Assembly (NCBI GenBank): GCA_017960885.1
Contig: JAGCYI010000230.1
Span: 3,175 to 67,174, forward strand
Source: Bacteroidales bacterium
GTDB taxonomy: Bacteria > Bacteroidota > Bacteroidia > Bacteroidales > UBA3824
Direction of reading: 5' to 3'
Length of the DNA: 64,000 bases
The position numbers and the translations under genes were made by a program. Below, one piece after another: positions 7,231-17,619 of the stretch (positions are counted from its first letter, which is position 1; every line of letters begins with the position of its first letter). The notes below the pieces were generated by a model, which did not search any database, was not told where the DNA came from, and saw only the letters and a list, made by a program, of their open reading frames with translations.

Positions 7231-7518
7231 TTATTGTTTGTGTTTTAGTTTTGCACGGCGTAATGCACGGCGTATTTTGTAAAAGTTTGGCGGCGGCACT
7301 GGGTCGAAACCGTGCGTGCCCCATGGGTTGCATCGTAGTATTCGCCAAGCAGCTAGCAGCGTGCCTCTTATAATACCATGGTATTCAACAGCTTGTAGTG
7401 CATACATGGAGCATGTGGGCGTATGACGGCAGGCGTCGGGCAGCCACGGTGAGATGCACAGCCGGTAGAATTTCACTGGCAGAAGGTAGATTTTTCTAAT
7501 TACAGTCGCAATTGTCAT
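7231..7518 (-). CDS. yidD: Membrane protein insertion efficiency factor
   Basis: [37 protein letters not shown]. Confidence 0.92.
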
Positions 7519-8142: not shown

Positions 8143-8829
8143 TTATTGTACTTTCTTAGTTTTGCCAACCACATATTCTGCGTAGCTTATATCCTCAAAA
8201 GTGGTGATTTTGATATTGCTGCGGTCGCCGTCGATGAGGTTGATTTGCTCGCCAAGACGCTCCACTACAGATGCGTCGTCGGTGAATGTGGGTTCGTATG
8301 GCTGGGTGTATGCGCGGCGGAGAACTTCGGCATGGAACACTTGTGGAGTTTGGATAAGTTTTACGGTGTTGCGGTCGATGATTTTGCTTGTTCCGTCTGG
8401 CAACACAGTGCGGATAGATTCAGGCGGATTGATGCATGGCACGGCGTTGCCTTTGAGGGCTGCTGTGGTATAGCACTGCGCAATGCACGATACCGATACG
8501 AGCGGACGTACTCCGTCGTGAACGCCTACGAGGTCGGTGTCGGAGGAGAGTGCGTCGACTGCGTTTTTTACCGAATGGAAACGTTCCTCGCCGCCTTTTA
8601 CTATGCGGTAGCTGCTTTCGGGCAGGAACGCCTGCGAAATCCGTTTCCAGTAGTCGATGTATTGAGCGGGCAGAGCAATAAGCACGTCGATAGTGGGGTC
8701 GAAACTGCGGAACTGTCCTACAGTGCGGCACAGGATTGGTATTCCGGCTATGTCTAAGAATTGTTTGGGCGTGCTGAGCCCCATACGTACGCCTTTGCCT
8801 CCAGCTACTATAATTACAGCGCGTTTCAT
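8143..8829 (-). CDS. ispD: 2-C-methyl-D-erythritol 4-phosphate cytidylyltransferase
   Basis: VAGGKGVRM..PKQF, HDGVRP, QTPQVF, TDDASVVE, NIKITT. Confidence 0.96.
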   Translation of the reverse strand: MKRAVIIVAGGKGVRMGLSTPKQFLDIAGIPILCRTVGQFRSFDPTIDVLIALPAQYIDYWKRISQAFLPESSYRIVKGGEERFHSVKNAVDALSSDTDLVGVHDGVRPLVSVSCIAQCYTTAALKGNAVPCINPPESIRTVLPDGTSKIIDRNTVKLIQTPQVFHAEVLRRAYTQPYEPTFTDDASVVERLGEQINLIDGDRSNIKITTFEDISYAEYVVGKTKKVQ

Positions 8830-9695
8830 TAGGCTGCGGTGATGTTTATGTTGTCGGCAATATGCTGAGCCACACGCTTGTTGATTTTGTCGGCGAGCAA
8901 GTTGAGGTTGAATCCTTTCTTTTCGAATGTGGCGAGCTCTACCAGTGCGATTGTTTTGCCATTGAATACTATTGGAATGAAAATAAGGTGTTTAGGTGAG
9001 CCTTGTCCGAGACCCGACACCACTACTTGTATATAGTTTTCGGGGATGTTGTCGAGCATGAGGATCTTCTTGTCTTTTGCAACCTGTCCGTTGATGCCTT
9101 CGCCCAGTTCGAAAGTGCGGTCGGTGTCGGGTGTGTAGTAAGCGTAAGTGCTCTTGATTTCAAATTTATCAATTTTTGGGTTGAGCGCGTAAGCTACGCC
9201 CTGTACAATGTCGAATACTTTGGCAAAATTGCTAAGCAGTTTGTCGAAGTAGTCGTTGAGGTCGGCGGTTTGTTCAAGGTCGACGGCGATGTCGGAAGCC
9301 ACTTGTTCGAGATGTTTGTTTTCTTCGGCTTCGCGTTTGGCTTTGAGTTCTTTTTCTTGGCGTAATTTTTCTTGCTTAACTTTTTCGTTGTTTTCTTCGG
9401 CTTCGCTGCGTGCTTCGCCATAAGAGTCGTTGAGACGGTCGTTGCTGCCTCTGTTTGGGAGAAAGTCGAGTTGTCTTTCTAATACGTCGGCGTCGTGAAG
9501 CAGTCTTTTCGCATAAGCGGTTACTGCCGCCATTACTATTGCGGAGAGGATTGGGAATCCTATCAGTAGCCATCCTGCAAAGTTTTGTGTCATCGGCAAT
9601 ATTATCGATGTAACAGTTGCTATGCACACAATAACCCAGATGGTTAGTACTGTGGTTATTTTTTTCTGTCCAATTACGAATTTATTCATGGCCAA
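8829..9695 (-). CDS. Membrane protein: 2 TM + coiled coil + GAF domain
   Basis: Two N-terminal TMs, E/K-rich helix, GAF signature FELGEGINGQVA..VSGLG..LIFIPI..VELA. Confidence 0.82.
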   Translation of the reverse strand: MAMNKFVIGQKKITTVLTIWVIVCIATVTSIILPMTQNFAGWLLIGFPILSAIVMAAVTAYAKRLLHDADVLERQLDFLPNRGSNDRLNDSYGEARSEAEENNEKVKQEKLRQEKELKAKREAEENKHLEQVASDIAVDLEQTADLNDYFDKLLSNFAKVFDIVQGVAYALNPKIDKFEIKSTYAYYTPDTDRTFELGEGINGQVAKDKKILMLDNIPENYIQVVVSGLGQGSPKHLIFIPIVFNGKTIALVELATFEKKGFNLNLLADKINKRVAQHIADNINITAA

Positions 9696-9702
9696 ATATT
9701 CA

Positions 9703-10251
9703 TTAGAGGTTTTTCAAATAATCTATAATATTGTTTGTGAGCATAATGTAGTCTACTTCGGTGGTTTTGATTGCTGCGGAGGTCATAGTTTTTACCTGAC
9801 ATTCGTCGGGCGACTGCACAATTACAGTGCCACCGGCATCTTTGATAGCTTTTAGACCAAGAGCTCCGTCTTTGTTTGCACCAGAGAGCAGTATGCCGAT
9901 TGCGTTTTCTTTGTAAGTGTTTGCAATAGAGCAGAAAGTAACGTCGATGGATGGTCTCGAGTGGTTTACAGGTTCTTCGGTAGAGAGCGAAAACTGATTG
10001 TTGGCGTCGACATACATGTGGTAGTTGGCTGGCGCAAGGTAGGCTACGCCCGGCATAGCGGTATCCTTGTCGTATGGTTCGCAAATCGGAATGTTAGATT
10101 TGAGCGAAAGAGCCTCTACAAACCCGCCCCTCACGTTTTTTAATCGGTGTAGGCATAGAAAAATGGTATGCGGATAGTTGCGCGGTATGCTTGCGAGCAA
10201 CGCTGTTACCGCTTGAAAACTTCCTGCCGATCCGCCAATTACTATGTACAT
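9703..10251 (-). CDS. cheB: Stand-alone CheB methylesterase (no receiver domain)
   Basis: IGGSAG (Ser), LHR (His), SRPSIDV, LLSGANKDGA (Asp). Confidence 0.92.
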   Translation of the reverse strand: MYIVIGGSAGSFQAVTALLASIPRNYPHTIFLCLHRLKNVRGGFVEALSLKSNIPICEPYDKDTAMPGVAYLAPANYHMYVDANNQFSLSTEEPVNHSRPSIDVTFCSIANTYKENAIGILLSGANKDGALGLKAIKDAGGTVIVQSPDECQVKTMTSAAIKTTEVDYIMLTNNIIDYLKNL

Positions 10252-10256
10252 GTTTT

Positions 10257-11090
10257 CTACTTTTGAATTTTAATAAAAATGTTTTCGCTTTTTGATACAG
10301 GGATAAAAACATTCCTGAAATCGCAGTTGGCGAGGTTTTCGCGTATGCCAATAATGAAGAAACCGCCGTTGCAGATGGTTTTAGCGATGGTGTCTACCAC
10401 AGCTTTTTTTGTTTGGGCGTTCATATAGAGCATACGGTCGCGAAATAGAACGAGGTTGAATCCGTTGTCGGGCGGAGGACTGCTTTCGATTCCGCTTTTG
10501 AGAAATATCACGTTGTTGAGCAATTCAGGAGAAAAATAGTCGTATTTGTCTTCTTTTGTGAGATAGTGGCTCAGTTCGGCCTCCGGGTCTATTTTTTTGA
10601 AATTTGCAGCGCTTATTTCTATCTTTTTCTGGTCGATGAAACCGCTTTTAGCGTCGTTGAGGGTCTTCTGTATGGGCGACGTGGCGTAAACGGTGCATCT
10701 GTTGAGTATTCTTTTGCGGTGAAGGATTGTGAGCAGCGAGTATAATTCATCGTCGCCACACACTTGCGGCACCCAAATTTTGCACAGGGTTTCGGTTTTG
10801 AGCTTTTCTATTATGTTGTCTTCTAGGAACTTCCACATAGAATAGTCTCTGAACATTTCTGTGGTTGGCACAAAAAGCTCCGACACAAACAGGTCGGCAA
10901 AATAGTTGTCGGCCATGAGCTTGTTGATAAGACGATCAGACGTTTGCACACCGTGCATATACATAGACCTTGTGATACGGTGCATAAGAATCTCAGGCGC
11001 ATAATAGGTGAAGTCTATATTGCGCAGTGTACGCACATTGGAGATTATTTTTCTAAAATCTTCGTATGGTATAGTCTGAAATTCGTCCAT
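10257..11090 (-). CDS. CheR-family protein, degenerate
   Basis: TTEMFRD and CheR layout, but the SAM motif reads IWVPQVCGDDE and the CRNV motif reads FRDRM. Confidence 0.8.
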   Translation of the reverse strand: MDEFQTIPYEDFRKIISNVRTLRNIDFTYYAPEILMHRITRSMYMHGVQTSDRLINKLMADNYFADLFVSELFVPTTEMFRDYSMWKFLEDNIIEKLKTETLCKIWVPQVCGDDELYSLLTILHRKRILNRCTVYATSPIQKTLNDAKSGFIDQKKIEISAANFKKIDPEAELSHYLTKEDKYDYFSPELLNNVIFLKSGIESSPPPDNGFNLVLFRDRMLYMNAQTKKAVVDTIAKTICNGGFFIIGIRENLANCDFRNVFIPVSKSENIFIKIQK

Positions 11091-11091
11091 A

Positions 11092-11934
11092 TTAAAATAC
11101 TTTTTTGTTGTAAATCAGTCCTCTTTTTTCGTATTTTGCACTCGTAGGACCAATAATGCTTTCGTGTATACCTAATACAAGCGATCCGTATGTGTCGAGA
11201 TATTTCCAAAAATCCAAGAACAGCTTGTTTTGGAGAGTGTTGTTGAAGTATATCAGCACGTTGCGGCACAATATGATGTCGTAAGATACGTCGAATGGAT
11301 TCGGGTCGTTTACAAGGTCGTGTTTCTGGAATGTGGCAATGTCCAAAAACTCTTCTTTTACCTTGAAAATGTCCTTTAATTTGTTGAATTCAAAATACTT
11401 TTCGTGTGTTACAACCAAATGCTCGTCGAAGTTGTACGGGTTTTCGCACAATACTTTGTTGAAGTTTTCAAGGTATTCAGAAATTGAGCGGTAGCTGTAA
11501 ACGCCTTTTTTCGCGGTTTTGAGCACGTCGGTGTTGAGGTCGGTAGCGTAAATGTGGCAGCGGTGTAGCATGCCCATCTCGTTGAGAAGTATTATCATAG
11601 AGTAAACTTCGAGACCTGTGCTGCATCCAGCGTGCCAGATGTTGATTTCCCGTTTGCTGGCAAGACGTGGCAGTATGCGGTATTTAATGGCGTGCCATAC
11701 CTGCGGGTCGCGGAATAGCTCTGTGGTGTTAACTGTGATTTCTTTTACTACCTGCTCTAAAAAATTACGGTCTGCTTTTATTTTGCTGATAAGTTGTGGA
11801 ATATCTAATTTGTAGTCCATCATTATTTTCTCAACACGCCGAGTAAACGACTTTTCTGAATAGTTAGAAAAGTCATATCTTCCATAGTCGCGTAGAGCTT
11901 TTATAAAATTCAATATATCAGCGGATTCAAACAT
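11092..11934 (-). CDS. cheR: Protein-glutamate O-methyltransferase CheR
   Basis: ITVNTTELFRD, IWHAGCSTGLEVYS, YATDL, DIILCRNVLIYF, LGIHES. Confidence 0.93.
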   Translation of the reverse strand: MFESADILNFIKALRDYGRYDFSNYSEKSFTRRVEKIMMDYKLDIPQLISKIKADRNFLEQVVKEITVNTTELFRDPQVWHAIKYRILPRLASKREINIWHAGCSTGLEVYSMIILLNEMGMLHRCHIYATDLNTDVLKTAKKGVYSYRSISEYLENFNKVLCENPYNFDEHLVVTHEKYFEFNKLKDIFKVKEEFLDIATFQKHDLVNDPNPFDVSYDIILCRNVLIYFNNTLQNKLFLDFWKYLDTYGSLVLGIHESIIGPTSAKYEKRGLIYNKKVF

Positions 11935-12048: not shown

Positions 12049-13083
12049 TTAATAAAGATCGCGGTTGTATCCGAGCATTGGCGGTACCATTTCTGTCTTG
12101 TTTCCGCTTACGCCAACAGCTTTGAGTGCCGGAAGGTCTTGAAGGAGCTCAGGAAACTGTGCAAAAAGATTGTTGCAGAGGTTGAAGTCGAACAGGTTTG
12201 TAAGTTTTGAAACGTCGTTTGGCAGGCGTGTGAGCTTGTTGTTGCTGAGGTCGAGAAATTCGAGTGTGGTAACTTTTGTGAGGTCGAGCGGGAACGAAGA
12301 TATGCTGTTGTTGTTGAGTATAAGTCGCTGCAGTTGACTCAATTGCGATATCTTTGCAGGGATTGCTATTATTCCATTGCCCGACAGCGAAAGCCTTGTG
12401 AGTGTGGTGATATTGCATATTTGCGACATGTCGCGCACTTTGTTGTTGTCTAAGTAGAGCACTTTGAGCGATTTGAAGTTGGCTACGGCAGCTGGTACCG
12501 ATGTGATGGAGTTGCCCGCAAGCAAGAGTGTTTCGAGACTCTTGATCTCGGTGAGCGCCGCCTGCATAGATGTGAGTTTGTTGAACGACAGGTCGAGCTC
12601 TTTGAGCGATTTCATGTTAGAAATGGAGGCGGGTATTGTTGCTATTAAATTGTTAGACAGAGTAACCGACTCTACTGTGGCGCAATTGGTGAGTGGCCCT
12701 ATGTCGGCAATGCGGTTGTTGGCAAGCGACAGGCGTTTCAACTTTCTCAGGTTGGTTATCTCTACCGGAATTTGCGAGATTGAATTCTGGTCGGCGAAAA
12801 TCTGGCGGAGGTCAGGCAGTTGGAAAAGTCCTGAGGGAAGATTGGTAATGGAGTTGCCTTGTATGTATAAGATTTTTAGCCTTTTGAATTGTGTCACTTC
12901 TGCCGGAACCGCTGTAAGGTTTTTATTGCTGAGGTCTAACACTTCAACGTTGTCGGGATAACCTAACGCTTCTTCTAACGAAGTGTAAACCAATTGCTTG
13001 GAAAGCCAGATTTCTCCGTAGTCTTGTGCGTTGAGCGCTATGGCTGATAGAAATAATGCGAGAGTTATTATTATTTTTTTCAT
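12049..13083 (-). CDS. Secreted leucine-rich repeat protein
   Basis: Signal peptide followed by about 12 LxxLxLxxNxI 22-23-aa repeats. Confidence 0.92.
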   Translation of the reverse strand: MKKIIITLALFLSAIALNAQDYGEIWLSKQLVYTSLEEALGYPDNVEVLDLSNKNLTAVPAEVTQFKRLKILYIQGNSITNLPSGLFQLPDLRQIFADQNSISQIPVEITNLRKLKRLSLANNRIADIGPLTNCATVESVTLSNNLIATIPASISNMKSLKELDLSFNKLTSMQAALTEIKSLETLLLAGNSITSVPAAVANFKSLKVLYLDNNKVRDMSQICNITTLTRLSLSGNGIIAIPAKISQLSQLQRLILNNNSISSFPLDLTKVTTLEFLDLSNNKLTRLPNDVSKLTNLFDFNLCNNLFAQFPELLQDLPALKAVGVSGNKTEMVPPMLGYNRDLY

Positions 13084-13166: not shown

Positions 13167-14012
13167 TTAAAATTCGTTTCGGTATTGTAAAACGCTGCAG
13201 TCTAATAATTTGTTTAGCAGTTTGTTGGTTTTTGTGGCGCGTTTCCTTTTGGCGCAGTCTGCCGCGTTTTTTATCCCTCCTATATAATAACGTTGAATCC
13301 ATGGTAAAACGCATAACACGGCTGTCCAATTGCCATAATTATTTGCTAAATATATTCCGAGGGTTACAAACGAACCTATAAGCATCTCTGAGGCTATGCC
13401 GTCGATGGGGCTGTTGCTTATATACTGTCCTGTTCCAGGAACAATTGCGCTTGATATTCCGGCGATTGCGGGCGATGGTTTGCCCAGCCTGCGTGTCTTG
13501 CGCATGAGCTTTTCTAATTCGTGCTGTTTTTCCGTACTCACAACTTTTGATAAATACTCTTGACATTGGCTGTATTGTGCAAGATGGTAGCAGCATATTG
13601 CTAAGCGGAGGTTTTGTCCGGCAGATAATTCTTCAAACTTGTCGGTATCTATCTGCATCAATGCGCCTATTGCGTTAAAGTATTTTTTAGATGAAATATA
13701 GATATCGGCTTTTGCCATAAGCACTTCGTTCTGTTGTAAATTGGAATTTACTTTTTGGTAAGCTTGATTGATAAGTGCTTCGGCTTTGCCATTGTTTCCA
13801 GTGTAGGCAAACAACCGAGCCGCGGTGATATATTTTTGCGGATTATTACTTATAGTATCGAATAAAATAGCACGTTGTATCTCTTTTAACGCCAATAAAG
13901 TATCGCCGTTGACAAAAGCTTTAACGGCGCTGTTGTACACCGAATCGCAATTCTGGCTATAAAGGGCACAGTTAGAAAAGATTATTATACATATAATCAA
14001 TAATTTGTCCAT
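13167..14012 (-). CDS. TPR-like protein with C-terminal TM2-like membrane motif
   Basis: Signal peptide, helical repeats, KPSPAIAGISSAIVPGTGQY, YYIGGI. Confidence 0.75.
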   Translation of the reverse strand: MDKLLIICIIIFSNCALYSQNCDSVYNSAVKAFVNGDTLLALKEIQRAILFDTISNNPQKYITAARLFAYTGNNGKAEALINQAYQKVNSNLQQNEVLMAKADIYISSKKYFNAIGALMQIDTDKFEELSAGQNLRLAICCYHLAQYSQCQEYLSKVVSTEKQHELEKLMRKTRRLGKPSPAIAGISSAIVPGTGQYISNSPIDGIASEMLIGSFVTLGIYLANNYGNWTAVLCVLPWIQRYYIGGIKNAADCAKRKRATKTNKLLNKLLDCSVLQYRNEF

Positions 14013-14772
14013 CTCTGATATTCCTTTGTGCTTTGTTGAACTTATTTACTGATTTAGCAGTTCCGAAAATGTTGCCAATGTAGAAACACGCCGATACAGA
14101 CCCGAAAAATATCGGATATGGGTCGCGAAAGCCATATTTTCTGAATCCGTATATCAAGTGCAGGTAGTCGAAACATGTTCTCAGCATAGCAATGATGCCT
14201 TCGCGCACGTATCCGCAGTAAATTCTGCCGCTGCCTGGCACTATTGCCGACATTGTGATTGCAGGAAACATTCTTTTTTGTTTTATGTTGCTTGTACACA
14301 ATGATTTAATTTCTGGTAGAATAAACTCTGTTTCCTTTGGAGTGGGATAGTCGCATATTGTAGAAAGTCCATATTTTATGTTGTGAATCTTGGTGGTGAA
14401 CGGGGCTTTTACCGAATCGCAATAAACAAAAGCTGTATCGTATTGGCGGTTTTTTATCAGGAGTTTCACATAGCTGAAATAGTATTGGGAGTTGCTTCCT
14501 GCATGAGGAAGAACATATTTTTCAAAATGGTTGAGAGCATTTTTGAAGTCATAGGCAATTTCATAACATTCAATTGCTTTAATTGAGTAATCTAAACTAT
14601 TGCTATAACTGTTTTTGGCAAGACGTCCGTACTCTTCGGCTGCGAAATGATACTGCTGTGTGTTGTAAAGGTATTGCGCAAACACTTTGGTGTGCGCTGT
14701 GTCGTAAAGGTTCTGCCCTTTTGAAATGTTAGCTGCCAGAACTGTTAATATGAATACAAAAGCATATCTCAT
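13972..14772 (-). CDS. TPR-like protein with C-terminal TM2-like membrane motif (paralog)
   Basis: Start adjusted to ATG 14772 (ATGA overlap with upstream gene); AITMSAIVPGSGRIYCG, FYIGNIFG. Confidence 0.75.
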   Translation of the reverse strand: MRYAFVFILTVLAANISKGQNLYDTAHTKVFAQYLYNTQQYHFAAEEYGRLAKNSYSNSLDYSIKAIECYEIAYDFKNALNHFEKYVLPHAGSNSQYYFSYVKLLIKNRQYDTAFVYCDSVKAPFTTKIHNIKYGLSTICDYPTPKETEFILPEIKSLCTSNIKQKRMFPAITMSAIVPGSGRIYCGYVREGIIAMLRTCFDYLHLIYGFRKYGFRDPYPIFFGSVSACFYIGNIFGTAKSVNKFNKAQRNIRDGQIIDYMYNNLF

Positions 14773-15695
14773 TTTTTCCGTTTCAAAGGATAGTCGATAA
14801 GGCGGTTGCGATTTTCGTCGAAAATGTATCCGTTTTTGTCGATGCCGTTGCATCTTAACAAACGGTCGAATGTGTCGGCAAAACCGTAAAAAAATCCGTT
14901 TTGGCTGAATGTTATTTTGCTATATTGCGAACACGACGGATAAAAACTGCATTGCTGTATGTCTTGAGGCGATATTATTCTCTTGTAAAATGCGAATAGT
15001 CCGTTGTAAAATGTTTTTCCTTCTTCTTCGCATAGAGAATCGCGTTGAAATGCCTCTGTGGGGTAGATTTTTGACGAGTCAGGCTCAAATTTGTCGAACT
15101 CTATGTGGCTGTAAATATTCTTGACGTAGAGCTCTTTTTCGCCGTATGTTACGGATATTGTGCGAGTTGGAAAATCTACGCCTCCGATGGTTTCGTAGTC
15201 GTAATAAAAAGTCTTACCAATTACTGAGTCGTTTTTATCGAACATTATTTCGGCATCCAAGCGGTTGCCAGTTTGCGATGTCATTATTTTGCAAACTATG
15301 GTTTGGTTGTGTTTGAGCAGGGTGTCGGCGATTTGCGGTGGTAGCTTATACGTTGTGATAGCCGATGTGCCTCTTTTTGCCACCGCCACCGGCTCAAAAT
15401 TGTAATCTGTTGCCGATGTGGCTGCAAATCCAGCGTTGACAGCCTGGTAGAGAATCGACTGCTTGATTTGTGGTTGTCTTACTACAGTAGTTATTGTGGT
15501 TGGTAAAACATATTCTTGCACAAGTATTTGGCATCCTTGATGGTAGCTTAAATGCCCTTTTGAAAGAATGTTGATGGTTTTGCCGTCGGTAATTTCTTCT
15601 AAAAAGTCGGCTTCTACCGAAAAATGTAGCTGAGCTTCTGCGTTGATGCAGAGGCAAATAGATAGACACGCCGCTACTATTTTACCGAGAGCCAT
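14769..15695 (-). CDS. Secreted protein: LolA/sorting-like N-domain fused to C-terminal YidD-like domain
   Basis: C-terminal FYKRIISPQD..CSFYPSCSQY..G..DRLLRCNG; N-terminal signal peptide; YYDYETIGGVDFPTR. Confidence 0.72.
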   Translation of the reverse strand: MALGKIVAACLSICLCINAEAQLHFSVEADFLEEITDGKTINILSKGHLSYHQGCQILVQEYVLPTTITTVVRQPQIKQSILYQAVNAGFAATSATDYNFEPVAVAKRGTSAITTYKLPPQIADTLLKHNQTIVCKIMTSQTGNRLDAEIMFDKNDSVIGKTFYYDYETIGGVDFPTRTISVTYGEKELYVKNIYSHIEFDKFEPDSSKIYPTEAFQRDSLCEEEGKTFYNGLFAFYKRIISPQDIQQCSFYPSCSQYSKITFSQNGFFYGFADTFDRLLRCNGIDKNGYIFDENRNRLIDYPLKRKK

Positions 15696-16036
15696 TTTAT
15701 CAACCCTCCCACAGCGGCGCCCGTTAAACAGCCGAATATAGCGAGCTTAACCTCTCTACGGTCTCCGTGCTTGCAAGCGTATACGATAGCCACAGCAATG
15801 GGACCAGCTCCCGCGCCGTACAATGTGTAAGTGCCAATTGCCGACACAATAGAAGTGAACAGGAATGTGGGCATTCTTCCCGGCATTGCAGAATCGGTAT
15901 AGCTTATAGCAATGCTGTCGGCTGTGGCAAATTTTTCGGCAATGCCAGCGTCTGAAAACAAATCGGGGTCTTCTCCGTCGGCGTAACTTGCTGTAAAACT
16001 GAATATCAACAATATAAGCGATAGTAGCTTCTTCAT
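15677..16036 (-). CDS. Small signal-peptide protein with Gly/Ala-rich hydrophobic C-terminal segments
   Basis: Start adjusted to ATG 16036: MKKLLSLILLIFSFTASYA, acidic linker, then GAGAGPIAVAIVY..GCLTGAAVGG. Confidence 0.75.
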   Translation of the reverse strand: MKKLLSLILLIFSFTASYADGEDPDLFSDAGIAEKFATADSIAISYTDSAMPGRMPTFLFTSIVSAIGTYTLYGAGAGPIAVAIVYACKHGDRREVKLAIFGCLTGAAVGGLIKWLSVK

Positions 16037-16040
16037 TGTT

Positions 16041-16535
16041 TTATTTGTGTGATTTGCGTTCGAGATTTGCGTTGATATATTGGTTGAGCTGTTTTTCAAG
16101 CACTTCAACCTCGCTAGGAGAGAGCGACGAGATGTTGAAGTCGGGATAAGTGTAATTTTCCAGCTCGTGTTGCTTGTTGAGGCCGCGGATTGTGATCGAC
16201 AATGTGCGACGTAGACCAAACAGCTGCTTTTTGATTATGTATTTGTGCAGCAATTGTTTCTTGATGCTGAATGCCACATGTTTGCGCAATATGGGGAATG
16301 CATTGTAGGTGCGTATCTCTATTGGGTCTTTGTCGTCGCAAAAACTGAAAAACGAGGGACGCAGAACCAGCAGCATAAAAAGAAACACTACGCCAAATAT
16401 GATTCCTGACACTAACAGCGATATAGGATGCGGTCGGTCAACATAATAGTAGATAAATGATCCTATACTGAGAAGGAATGTTGCTATATAAGCCAATCGG
16501 TATTTCGATGTCGATAAAAGGTTATCTGTGTACAT
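16041..16535 (-). CDS. Hypothetical membrane protein
   Basis: Two N-terminal TMs and a basic soluble tail. Confidence 0.65.
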   Translation of the reverse strand: MYTDNLLSTSKYRLAYIATFLLSIGSFIYYYVDRPHPISLLVSGIIFGVVFLFMLLVLRPSFFSFCDDKDPIEIRTYNAFPILRKHVAFSIKKQLLHKYIIKKQLFGLRRTLSITIRGLNKQHELENYTYPDFNISSLSPSEVEVLEKQLNQYINANLERKSHK

Positions 16536-16563: not shown

Positions 16564-17619
16564 TTAAATATTCATTTGGTTGTAGAACGAGAAAGCCTGG
16601 CAGATGTCCTCTTCGGAGCAGTTGACGTCGTATTTATAGTTTCCAAAACCGCTTACGAGCGAGAACGATATTTTGCCGCCTGAGTTTTTCTTGTCGTGTT
16701 GCATTAGTTCAATAAGTGTTTTATAAGCCTCCATTCCGAACCGGAACGATGGGAAATATGTTCCAATCATTTTTGACACTTCGATGAGGTTTTGAATTGG
16801 AAATCCCATGTAGTGGTTGCTCAAAAATAGTTCGCATACTATGCCTGCAGCCACAGCCTCGCCATGTAGTAGGGGAGAAGGAGTTGAAAATGAGTAACTT
16901 TCGATTGCGTGACCTATGGTATGGCCAAAATTGAGCATTTTTCTAAGTCCTTTTTCGGTGGGATCGGCAGATGTGAATTCGTTTTTTATCTTTATAGATG
17001 TTTCCACAAGTTGCGAAAGTAGTTGATAGTCTGGTTGTTTTGGGTCGAAAGGTAAAAGACTCTCAAAATAACCACGATCTACAAGAAGTGCATGTTTGAT
17101 CATTTCGGCAAATCCTGAAATAATCTGCCTTTGGGGCAATGATTTTAAGAATGCAGAATCTACAATTACTTTGTGCGGATTGTTGAAAACTCCGATTTCG
17201 TTTTTAAAGTTTTGAAAGTCAACGGCTAATTTGCCACCACACGAAGCGTCAACCTGGGCAAGCAGGGTAGTGGGCACGTTAACGAACTTTATTCCACGTT
17301 TGAAAAGCGATGCAGCCAGTCCGCCCATGTCGCCGATAACACCGCCGCCGATATTTACAAAAAGGCTTTTGCGGTCGGCACCTCCGTTGCTAAGGTTTGA
17401 CCATATAACGCTCAGAGTGTCAATATTTTTGTATTGCTCGCCACTATGAATTTCTATTACCGACGCACCGCTTTGGCTGATGCAGGGTAGGAGAGGGAGG
17501 CAGTATTTGGCGGTGTTTTCGTCTACCAGCACAAAAACTTTTGACGGCACTCCTTTAATAATTTCCGACAAAACAGCGTCGGCATTTTGCGTACATACTA
17601 CATTTTCAGGCAGATTCAT
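16564..17619 (-). CDS. aroB: 3-dehydroquinate synthase
   Basis: GEQYK, GGGVIGDMGG, VPTTLLAQVDA, LNFGHTIGHAIES, LLHGEAVA. Confidence 0.96.
   Translation of the reverse strand: MNLPENVVCTQNADAVLSEIIKGVPSKVFVLVDENTAKYCLPLLPCISQSGASVIEIHSGEQYKNIDTLSVIWSNLSNGGADRKSLFVNIGGGVIGDMGGLAASLFKRGIKFVNVPTTLLAQVDASCGGKLAVDFQNFKNEIGVFNNPHKVIVDSAFLKSLPQRQIISGFAEMIKHALLVDRGYFESLLPFDPKQPDYQLLSQLVETSIKIKNEFTSADPTEKGLRKMLNFGHTIGHAIESYSFSTPSPLLHGEAVAAGIVCELFLSNHYMGFPIQNLIEVSKMIGTYFPSFRFGMEAYKTLIELMQHDKKNSGGKISFSLVSGFGNYKYDVNCSEEDICQAFSFYNQMNI

Follow-up and report, generated by a model that had tools for sequence, protein, structure and literature searches.

The 64,000-nucleotide stretch of DNA described here, indicated below as the window, belongs to contig JAGCYI010000230.1 of an uncultured Bacteroidales bacterium. 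Between positions 13167 and 16036 it contains four overlapping genes, whose products are indicated as A, B, C and D: a small membrane protein, a protein ending in a second YidD domain (YidD2), and two related membrane proteins with a predicted tetratricopeptide repeat (TPR) domain. These genes belong to a module conserved across Bacteroidota, far beyond the genus; it is tentatively read as an envelope system for hydrophobic cargo, organized around a putatively exported YidD2. The features are listed below, with coordinates referring to the window; all module genes are on the minus strand.

15677-16036, minus: protein A, 119 amino acids, small membrane protein (open reading frame, family alignments)
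14769-15695, minus: protein B, 308 amino acids, with signal peptide, LolA-fold domain, disordered linker and YidD2 domain (Pfam/NCBIfam, AlphaFold2, Foldseek)
15096-15620, minus: predicted LolA-superfamily open beta-barrel domain of B, residues about 26-200 (AlphaFold2 and Foldseek)
14796-15008, minus: YidD2 domain of B, residues about 230-300, with motifs C-x-F-x-P-S-C-S and R-C (PF01809)
13972-14772, minus: protein C, 266 amino acids, with signal peptide, TPR domain, three-helix membrane domain and basic C-terminal helix, as predicted (AlphaFold2, alignment)
13167-14012, minus: protein D, 281 amino acids, paralogue of C with identical architecture (open reading frame, BLASTP, weak Pfam matches)
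7231-7518, minus: canonical yidD, open reading frame of 95 amino acids, a comparator outside the module (PF01809, E 1.4e-28)

The initial annotation, made from the sequence alone, had described four overlapping genes, one junction being of the ATGA type, all encoding N-terminal signal peptides; open reading frames and junctions, read directly, are as described. A and B overlap by 19 nucleotides, C and D by 41. The ATGA overlap, at 14772-14769, consists of the stop codon of B (TGA, 14771-14769) and the start codon of C (ATG, 14772-14770); the start of C is best set at this ATG, at 14772, which corrects earlier gene boundaries. Each of the four proteins starts with a short basic and hydrophobic stretch, signal-peptide-like both by eye and by a hydrophobicity heuristic. 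In B, C and D this stretch is followed by a glutamine, as is common after signal peptides in Bacteroidota. A scan for sigma-70 promoters and terminators, which does not cover Bacteroidota promoters, gave no informative boundary. In the annotated loci, the cluster holds no YidC-like gene, LolCDE, LolB-like gene or any ATPase.

The YidD domain of B is recognized by two family models: residues 231-290 match PF01809 (E 5e-17, 61.9 bits, cut-off 27) and the domain also matches TIGR00278 (E 1.2e-16, 60.3 bits, cut-off 40), keeping the hydrophobic first helix and the C-x-F-x-P-S-C-S motif. A search of the whole genome places the domain at 14826-15008 of the window and finds exactly two YidD matches in the assembly, B and the canonical gene at 7231-7518, both of which had been noticed at first. 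Canonical YidD is a membrane protein insertion efficiency factor, encoded together with rnpA and yidC in many bacteria. It is a small stand-alone protein with no export signal: in the canonical copy of the window, the domain begins at residue 9, without an N-terminal extension. The domain of B, in contrast, follows a signal peptide and a predicted LolA fold, and YidD2 is linked to genes for TPR-membrane proteins (the C/D family), not to yidC.

The same duality is found in other genomes. Each of the 11 checked, namely the window's own, five other Bacteroidales and five of other orders or classes, contains two YidD matches and no more: one is linked to the locus, and the other is located elsewhere, in an open frame of 69-106 amino acids. 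In a maximum-likelihood tree of 47 domains, built on 84 columns, unrooted and including two long-branched rows, a single branch (support 97/95) separates the 11 canonical from 36 locus-linked YidD domains; the split is found in 96% of 200 bootstrap trees. The domain of B clusters with the 35 other locus-linked ones. In 33 of the 36 YidD2 rows, 33-224 residues, starting with a strongly hydrophobic stretch, precede the domain, the remaining three being truncated open reading frame calls; in all 11 canonical proteins, the domain begins at residues 1-13 and no N-terminal hydrophobic extension is present. A second type of module carries a longer YidD2 (149-163 amino acids), which forms a separate subclade in the tree. 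These sequence comparisons point to YidD2 as an exported paralogue, not orthologous to canonical yidD. Because of the signal-peptide-like extension, or of the exported domain that precedes it, YidD2 should act on the periplasmic side of the membrane; in B, it shares one chain with a domain of the LolA type, LolA being periplasmic by nature.

Conservation of the gene order was evaluated in 41 loci, 13 found through B, 14 selected among the best order-level matches of C/D and 14 among the phylum-level ones, all scanned in six frames with four hidden Markov model profiles. The loci were hand-picked from ranked matches, close kin included: the fractions given describe this set, not the phylum. YidD2 adjoins, or is fused to, a TPR-membrane gene in 41 out of 41 loci, from Bacteroidales and other classes of Bacteroidota, and in 28 out of 28 when only loci chosen by the C/D profile are considered. 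Two TPR-membrane genes, a C-type and a D-type in tandem, are present in 38 of the 41. A LolA-like gene is found in 26 loci, all from Bacteroidia; family A is found in 19, and in all of these it lies directly upstream of the LolA-like gene. The wide co-occurrence is what the gene-neighbourhood check, suggested along with the initial annotation, was expected to reveal if the genes belong together.

The distribution of the C/D pair was also evaluated genome by genome. Full-length tandem pairs are found by the C/D profile in many families of the order. Among 151 Bacteroidales genomes (142 genera, completeness of at least 90%), 33 genomes, representing 31 genera, or about a fifth of them, contain a C/D match at E <= 1e-25; in the phylum sample, matches are found in 26 of 251 genomes, including 14 out of 14 of one family in another class.

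Two independent fusions link the parts. The first is B itself: fusion of a LolA-like domain to YidD2 is seen in 15 protein clusters, this one included, all close relatives, and a search with B in 40 relatives finds the fused gene only within the genus. In the congeners G014 and G019 the two parts are split, a LolA-like gene being followed by a separate YidD gene of 126-135 amino acids; elsewhere, too, the two halves are encoded by distinct neighbouring genes, the LolA-like one coming first in Bacteroidia. When the YidD part of B was used for a region search, in a length window of 169-539 amino acids, no further fusion types were found. The second fusion joins YidD2 to the N-terminus of a TPR-membrane protein (L071:7125-8363, 412 amino acids; L073:7802-8836, 344 amino acids), in lineages outside Bacteroidales which feature one TPR-membrane gene each. 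Since both fusions include YidD2, this appears to be the hub of the module, and may be argued to work physically with each partner, on the side of the membrane where the LolA fold and the TPR domains lie.

C and D are, by sequence, distant paralogues: BLASTP aligns them with an E of 0.001 and 29% identity over 115 C-terminal residues. The membrane motif initially noticed in both, P-G-x-G...Y-x-G, is conserved throughout the family, its P, G and G being invariant in 44 members. C was folded with AlphaFold2 on a 44-row alignment; the model is all-helical, with a predicted local distance difference test (pLDDT) value of 94.7. Residues 26-141 form TPR-like helix pairs, in agreement with the helices first proposed. 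The membrane part consists of two short helices (169-178 and 182-186), with the invariant P-G-x-G at the break between them, followed by a helix at 190-214 and by a long one at 219-266. Structural searches with Foldseek and VIA-align return generic TPR matches only; the TPR part dominates the comparison, so that the membrane domain is barely tested. The best VIA-align match, to a TPR protein (Z 13.1, root-mean-square deviation 3.2, 139 aligned residues), is in the non-specific range for helical repeats. In Pfam, TPR_2 is matched by 8 of 15 family members and weak TPR matches are found for D; C itself has no significant Pfam TPR match. In sequence searches of the PDB, D finds no relative and the C/D profile finds TPR only.

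For the membrane domain, resemblance to both TM2 and DUF5683 had been suggested. The DUF5683 (PF18935) part stands, locally: hhalign aligns the C/D membrane domain to it with a probability of 96.35% (E 1.5e-9) over 49 columns, and the shared motif, S-x3-P-G-x-G-Q-x-Y, falls where the first two C/D membrane helices align to the start of DUF5683. The likeness extends to 49 of the 151 profile positions, C and D are below the Pfam cut-off, and they add a TPR domain. D reaches 12.9 bits, the cut-off being 26.7, over profile positions 2-25 only, and C has no match; weak DUF5683 matches are found in 8 of the 15 family members, the best at 7.4e-5. In the ESM Atlas, the membrane domain of C matches DUF5683 clusters at 0.77, which is to be taken as a lead only. 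A true DUF5683 gene, sharing the P-G-x-G-Q-x-Y hairpin, is present elsewhere in the same genome (L085:1279-1965, contig C297, E 4.5e-41), and such a gene is single-copy in all 25 Bacteroidales genomes sampled; a literature search on DUF5683 found no functional paper. The TM2 part of the suggestion finds no support: between C/D and the TM2 proteins found near some modules, no relationship is detected by hhalign (probability about 1%), and TM2 (PF05154) is matched by 2 of the 15 family members, with a best E of 0.022. C and D would be cytoplasmic-membrane proteins with a periplasmic TPR domain, three helices joined by short loops and a cytoplasmic tail rich in lysine and arginine.

Complex prediction weakly suggests that B associates with C and D. 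Three chains, the mature forms of C, D and B, were modelled together, B being scored; both the custom alignments and the number of chains depart from the calibration set-up, and the output specifies no interface. The score is 0.52 (0.53, 0.52 and 0.51 in the three runs), to be compared with 0.17 for the best of three controls; the runs agree in at least 91% of the contacts, with partner pLDDT values of at least 68. In calibration, 116 of 157 solved complexes and 2 of 215 mismatched pairs attained the mark; of these passing cases, scores of 0.60 or below account for only 18 of the 157 solved complexes and for both mismatches. The prediction, which covers three of the four proteins for which one had been suggested at the outset, is above its controls without being that of a confident complex. 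The genes might be mere neighbours, B being a redundant copy of YidD, and C and D generic TPR-containing membrane proteins: TPR proteins are abundant, and the complex prediction is weak. Such an explanation is hard to reconcile with adjacency in 41 of 41 loci from several classes, with two fusions, with overlapping reading frames and with a separate YidD2 clade featuring an export signal, and is regarded as very improbable.

The LolA fold of B is an addition to what had initially been noticed. B was folded with AlphaFold2 on a 33-row alignment, with a mean pLDDT of 84.9 and ten-residue block means of 84-98 over residues 21-200. In the model, a beta-barrel with inserted helices spans residues 26-200, and a disordered stretch (207-228) leads to the YidD domain. 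Compared by Foldseek with the PDB, the barrel matches the LolA-superfamily protein 3buu (E 2.6e-9), LolA3 of Porphyromonas gingivalis (9tp6, E 1.2e-7), LolB (9tpm, E 3.3e-6) and Escherichia coli LolA (7z6w, E 1.7e-6); ranks 1 to 17 are all occupied by LolA, LolB, LolA-superfamily or related proteins, with probability 1.00 and E from 2.6e-9 to 1e-4. No solved YidD structure is among the PDB matches of B. The N-terminal 200 residues or so of B are thus modelled as a LolA-superfamily open beta-barrel; like LolA, B would be exported and is not a lipoprotein. Sequence methods do not reveal this kinship: at E <= 1, no LolA-type family is found for B in Pfam or NCBIfam, and the B profile has no match among PDB sequences, which include solved LolA, LolB and LolA3. 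In the structural alignments with these LolA-type proteins, identity is 6-15%; the domain of B is fused or adjacent to YidD2, instead of being a partner of LolCDE and LolB.

A fold of this kind raises the possibility that the module moves a lipid or a lipoprotein, rather than A: the LolA fold would carry acyl chains, as LolA does for lipoproteins and as is proposed of LolA2/LolB2 for flexirubin, to be loaded or unloaded by YidD2 and the TPR-membrane pair, with A as a structural or regulatory subunit. Besides the fold itself, and the presence of the core without A in 22 of the 41 loci, reports on LolA paralogues of Bacteroidota are compatible with it. In the parts of the source considered, lolA2 and lolB2 lie in the flexirubin operon of Flavobacterium johnsoniae (PMC11885536); LolA3 paralogues are described without an assigned function in passages on F. 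johnsoniae (PMC11885536) and P. gingivalis (PMC13103446), and in the latter LolA3 is said not to pair with LolB. Several features are in disagreement: the cluster contains no ABC transporter, no lipid-synthesis gene and no LolB-like gene; no LolA-like gene is detected in 15 of the 41 loci; where A is present, a LolA-like gene always is (19 out of 19), as fits a carrier and its cargo; and the LolA-like domain of B has no sequence relative among the solved LolA, LolB and LolA3. On balance, transport of lipids or lipoproteins with A as a subunit is considered rather unlikely.

Protein A, as first described, has 119 amino acids, with an acidic part and Gly/Ala-rich hydrophobic helices: the open reading frame and the family alignments show a signal-peptide-like N-terminus, an acidic helix and then a Gly/Ala-rich hydrophobic hairpin. 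The layout is common to the family (signal peptide, acidic helix, variable linker and a hydrophobic part of two helices); in the member from the window, the first hydrophobic segment contains an additional inserted Gly/Ala-rich stretch. With a 20-row profile of the family, the number of cluster representatives retrieved is 830 at E <= 0.001, 614 at 1e-10 and 53 at 1e-30; lengths among the best 150 range from 123 to 229 amino acids, and none of these is a fusion. No significant Pfam or NCBIfam family is found for A. In the ESM Atlas, it matches only unnamed Bacteroidota clusters, the best at 0.86; a Pmp3 cluster, at rank 16 and 0.75, is below the trust level and is only a lead. Kinship with T4SS_pilin, matched by 3 of 20 family members with a best E of 0.002, was rejected as a compositional likeness of two-helix proteins.

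Family A is tied to the module and is seldom found apart from it. Of the 151 Bacteroidales genomes, 18 contain a family A match (E <= 1e-6), and 14 of these 18 are among the 33 with a C/D pair; most matches share a contig with C/D, which they precede by 1-2 kb. In G076 and G093, A matches are weak and partial only. In most genomes A is a single-copy gene whose position is fixed. Genomes other than that of L053 have one or two copies; in L053 (10622-13317, minus strand), from a Bacteroidales genome, five tandem paralogues of 143-173 amino acids precede the LolA-like gene.

Such an array is reminiscent of diversifying toxin or peptide families, and A, small, with a signal-peptide-like N-terminus and Gly/Ala-rich hydrophobic helices, might be a secreted membrane-active peptide, bacteriocin-like or pore-forming, with B, C and D as its export, maturation or immunity machinery. 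Genes of the YidD family have historically been labelled 'haemolytic'. The cluster, though, contains no peptidase, no ABC exporter and no double-glycine leader; A is found as a single copy in a fixed position in most genomes; the core is kept across classes without A; and PADLOC finds no match for A, B, C or D, the annotated neighbours being housekeeping genes. The likelihood of this explanation appears minimal. The HlyA and HlyB 'hemolysins' of Bacteroides fragilis were also considered and set aside: in the passages considered, they are described as acyl- and acetyltransferase-domain proteins, unrelated to the locus (PMC3633356).

The module is repeatedly accompanied by other small exported proteins whose C-terminal helices are hydrophobic, a pattern which is not proof that they are its clients. 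TM2-domain proteins of 132-141 amino acids are located at or near the A position in L026:5264-5689, L045:11085-11483 and L050:10090-10503, and accompany the second module type, with the longer YidD2; the domain (PF05154) is matched with an E of 1.1e-8 in L026 and 1.7e-16 in L045, and assigned by sequence clustering and alignment in L050. They resemble A in featuring a signal peptide, an acidic helix and two hydrophobic helices. Their alignment with family A is limited to 35 N-terminal columns (hhalign probability 74.6%), a span which includes the signal peptide and may be compositional, while the hydrophobic parts of family A have no detectable relationship to TM2. At L072:9165-9653 and L073:8961-9398, in two different families of other classes, the gene directly upstream of YidD2 encodes a small PEGA-domain protein whose C-terminal hydrophobic segment is Gly-rich.

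The favoured interpretation, held tentatively, is that of an envelope module conserved in Bacteroidota and centred on an exported YidD2; it would be anchored to the inner membrane, face the periplasm and act on hydrophobic cargo. A heterodimer of C and D in the cytoplasmic membrane would hold YidD2 at the periplasmic face. Canonical YidD has been proposed to aid YidC substrates at the cytoplasmic side; by analogy, YidD2 might ease hydrophobic segments into or out of the bilayer, and the LolA-fold domain might shield the hydrophobic cargo. In this locus, the likeliest cargo would be the Gly/Ala-rich hairpin of A after Sec export, its conserved acidic N-terminal helix being possibly recognized by the TPR domains. 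The hairpin is favoured on two grounds, the strict co-occurrence of A with the LolA-like gene and the scarcity of A outside the module; a lipid or lipoprotein would be almost as probable a cargo, and each of these candidates is inferred. Of the initial interpretation, that of a complex which would mature or insert the small protein, the conserved association of the genes is supported, and action on A is a possibility.

A bolder version of this interpretation would see in the module an unrecognized periplasmic-side route for inserting or trafficking membrane proteins, with an exported YidD seated on a TPR/three-helix heterodimer and a LolA-fold chaperone delivering hairpins. These would be the alpha-helical hairpins of small proteins exported by Sec (members of family A, TM2 proteins and Gly-zipper lipoproteins), the target could be the outer membrane, and neither an ATPase nor YidC would be needed. 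It is considered improbable in this full form.

Several observations weigh against the favoured interpretation of an envelope module for hydrophobic cargo. The core is found without A in 22 of the 41 loci, so A cannot be its only, or ancestral, client; the LolA-like gene is undetected in 15, including all 11 from other classes. Since the core can do without A and also without the LolA-like gene, its basic role has to be a broader one. Two genomes, G039 and G063, have strong A matches and no C/D match at E <= 1e-25; the G039 assembly is fragmented, and a LolA-like match is present beside its A. In the YidD2 domains examined from f172 and f181 loci (L061, L063, L069), the last cysteine of the YidD motif is replaced, which indicates a domain chemistry that varies between members. 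The topology proposed for C and D derives from the signal-peptide heuristic, the AlphaFold2 model and the distribution of charges. A complex score of 0.52 falls in a range which is more often wrong than right, unless the guess is likely beforehand, as the fusions make it for C, D and B. To our knowledge, the function of canonical YidD is itself poorly defined.

The locus matches no characterized pathway in Pfam, NCBIfam, PADLOC, PDB sequences or full-text literature searches; the initial statement that no function is described for this combination still holds for these sources. No description of such a paralogue was found in literature searches on YidD in Bacteroidetes, YidD paralogues and YidD-like domains, and the main-text passages considered of two papers on Bacteroidota LolA paralogues (PMC11885536, PMC13103446) do not mention YidD or tetratricopeptide/TPR. 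The parts are known (YidD, the LolA superfamily, TPR and the DUF5683 hairpin); their arrangement, on an unexpected side of the membrane, is undescribed.

YidD is among the least understood of the widely conserved membrane-biogenesis factors, and is known only as a cytoplasm-side helper: an exported lineage with a fixed membrane partner would give a handle on the role of the YidD fold at the membrane surface. The module ties together three families without a function, namely family A, the C/D family and, through the common hairpin, the universal DUF5683. It also gives a context to an orphan class of LolA folds, in a phylum where the roles of extra LolA paralogues are described as open in the parts considered of the two papers (PMC11885536, PMC13103446). 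Carriers of the module include four single-contig assemblies and a fifth (G295) in three contigs, so that genetic knock-outs should be feasible in a cultured one.

The genes surrounding the module in the window are the following.

16564-17619, minus: aroB (Pfam match)
16041-16535, minus: protein of 164 amino acids with two N-terminal hydrophobic helices, no family assignment (open reading frame)
12049-13083, minus: leucine-rich-repeat (LRR) protein with a signal-peptide-like N-terminus (LRR_8, E 3.8e-48)

Across the genus, the gene order is aroB, the 164-residue gene, A, B, C, D and the LRR gene. The stop codon of the 164-residue gene lies 4 nucleotides ahead of the ATG of A, and this two-helix gene is probably the first of the A-D transcription unit; homologues occupy this position within the genus and in L020, L021, L046 and L049. 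Its product has no Pfam or NCBIfam match above cut-off and, like A-D, no match in PADLOC. The LRR gene, for whose product PADLOC reports a weak DrmC match (E 0.0029), is located 83 nucleotides downstream of D, and the position is kept in L015-L021; it is a genus-level neighbour, whose membership in the module is uncertain. Where it is absent, a helical-repeat protein may be a further member: in seven loci (L041:9563-10537 and six more), the D-type gene is followed by one for an all-helical repeat protein, unrelated to the LRR protein, with 268-373 amino acids, a signal peptide and no match in Pfam, and in L067:8119-9060 a protein of 313 amino acids, similar by eye, is encoded between D and YidD2.

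In other classes, acyl-CoA dehydrogenase, ACT, DUF711 and LemA genes found near the module look like unrelated housekeeping genes and were not retained as members. In the window, a run of minus-strand genes at 8829-11934, just downstream of the LRR gene, encodes a GAF-domain protein (8829-9695), a CheB methylesterase (9703-10251) and two CheR-type methyltransferases (10257-11090 and 11092-11934). Other chemotaxis genes are not seen nearby; the run represents a chemotaxis-like methylation set, kept with the locus within the genus. Finally, five Bacteroidales genomes (G028, G033, G046, G077, G121) contain two C/D tandem pairs on different contigs, with four matches each, indicating that the module can be duplicated, or that both module types can coexist.

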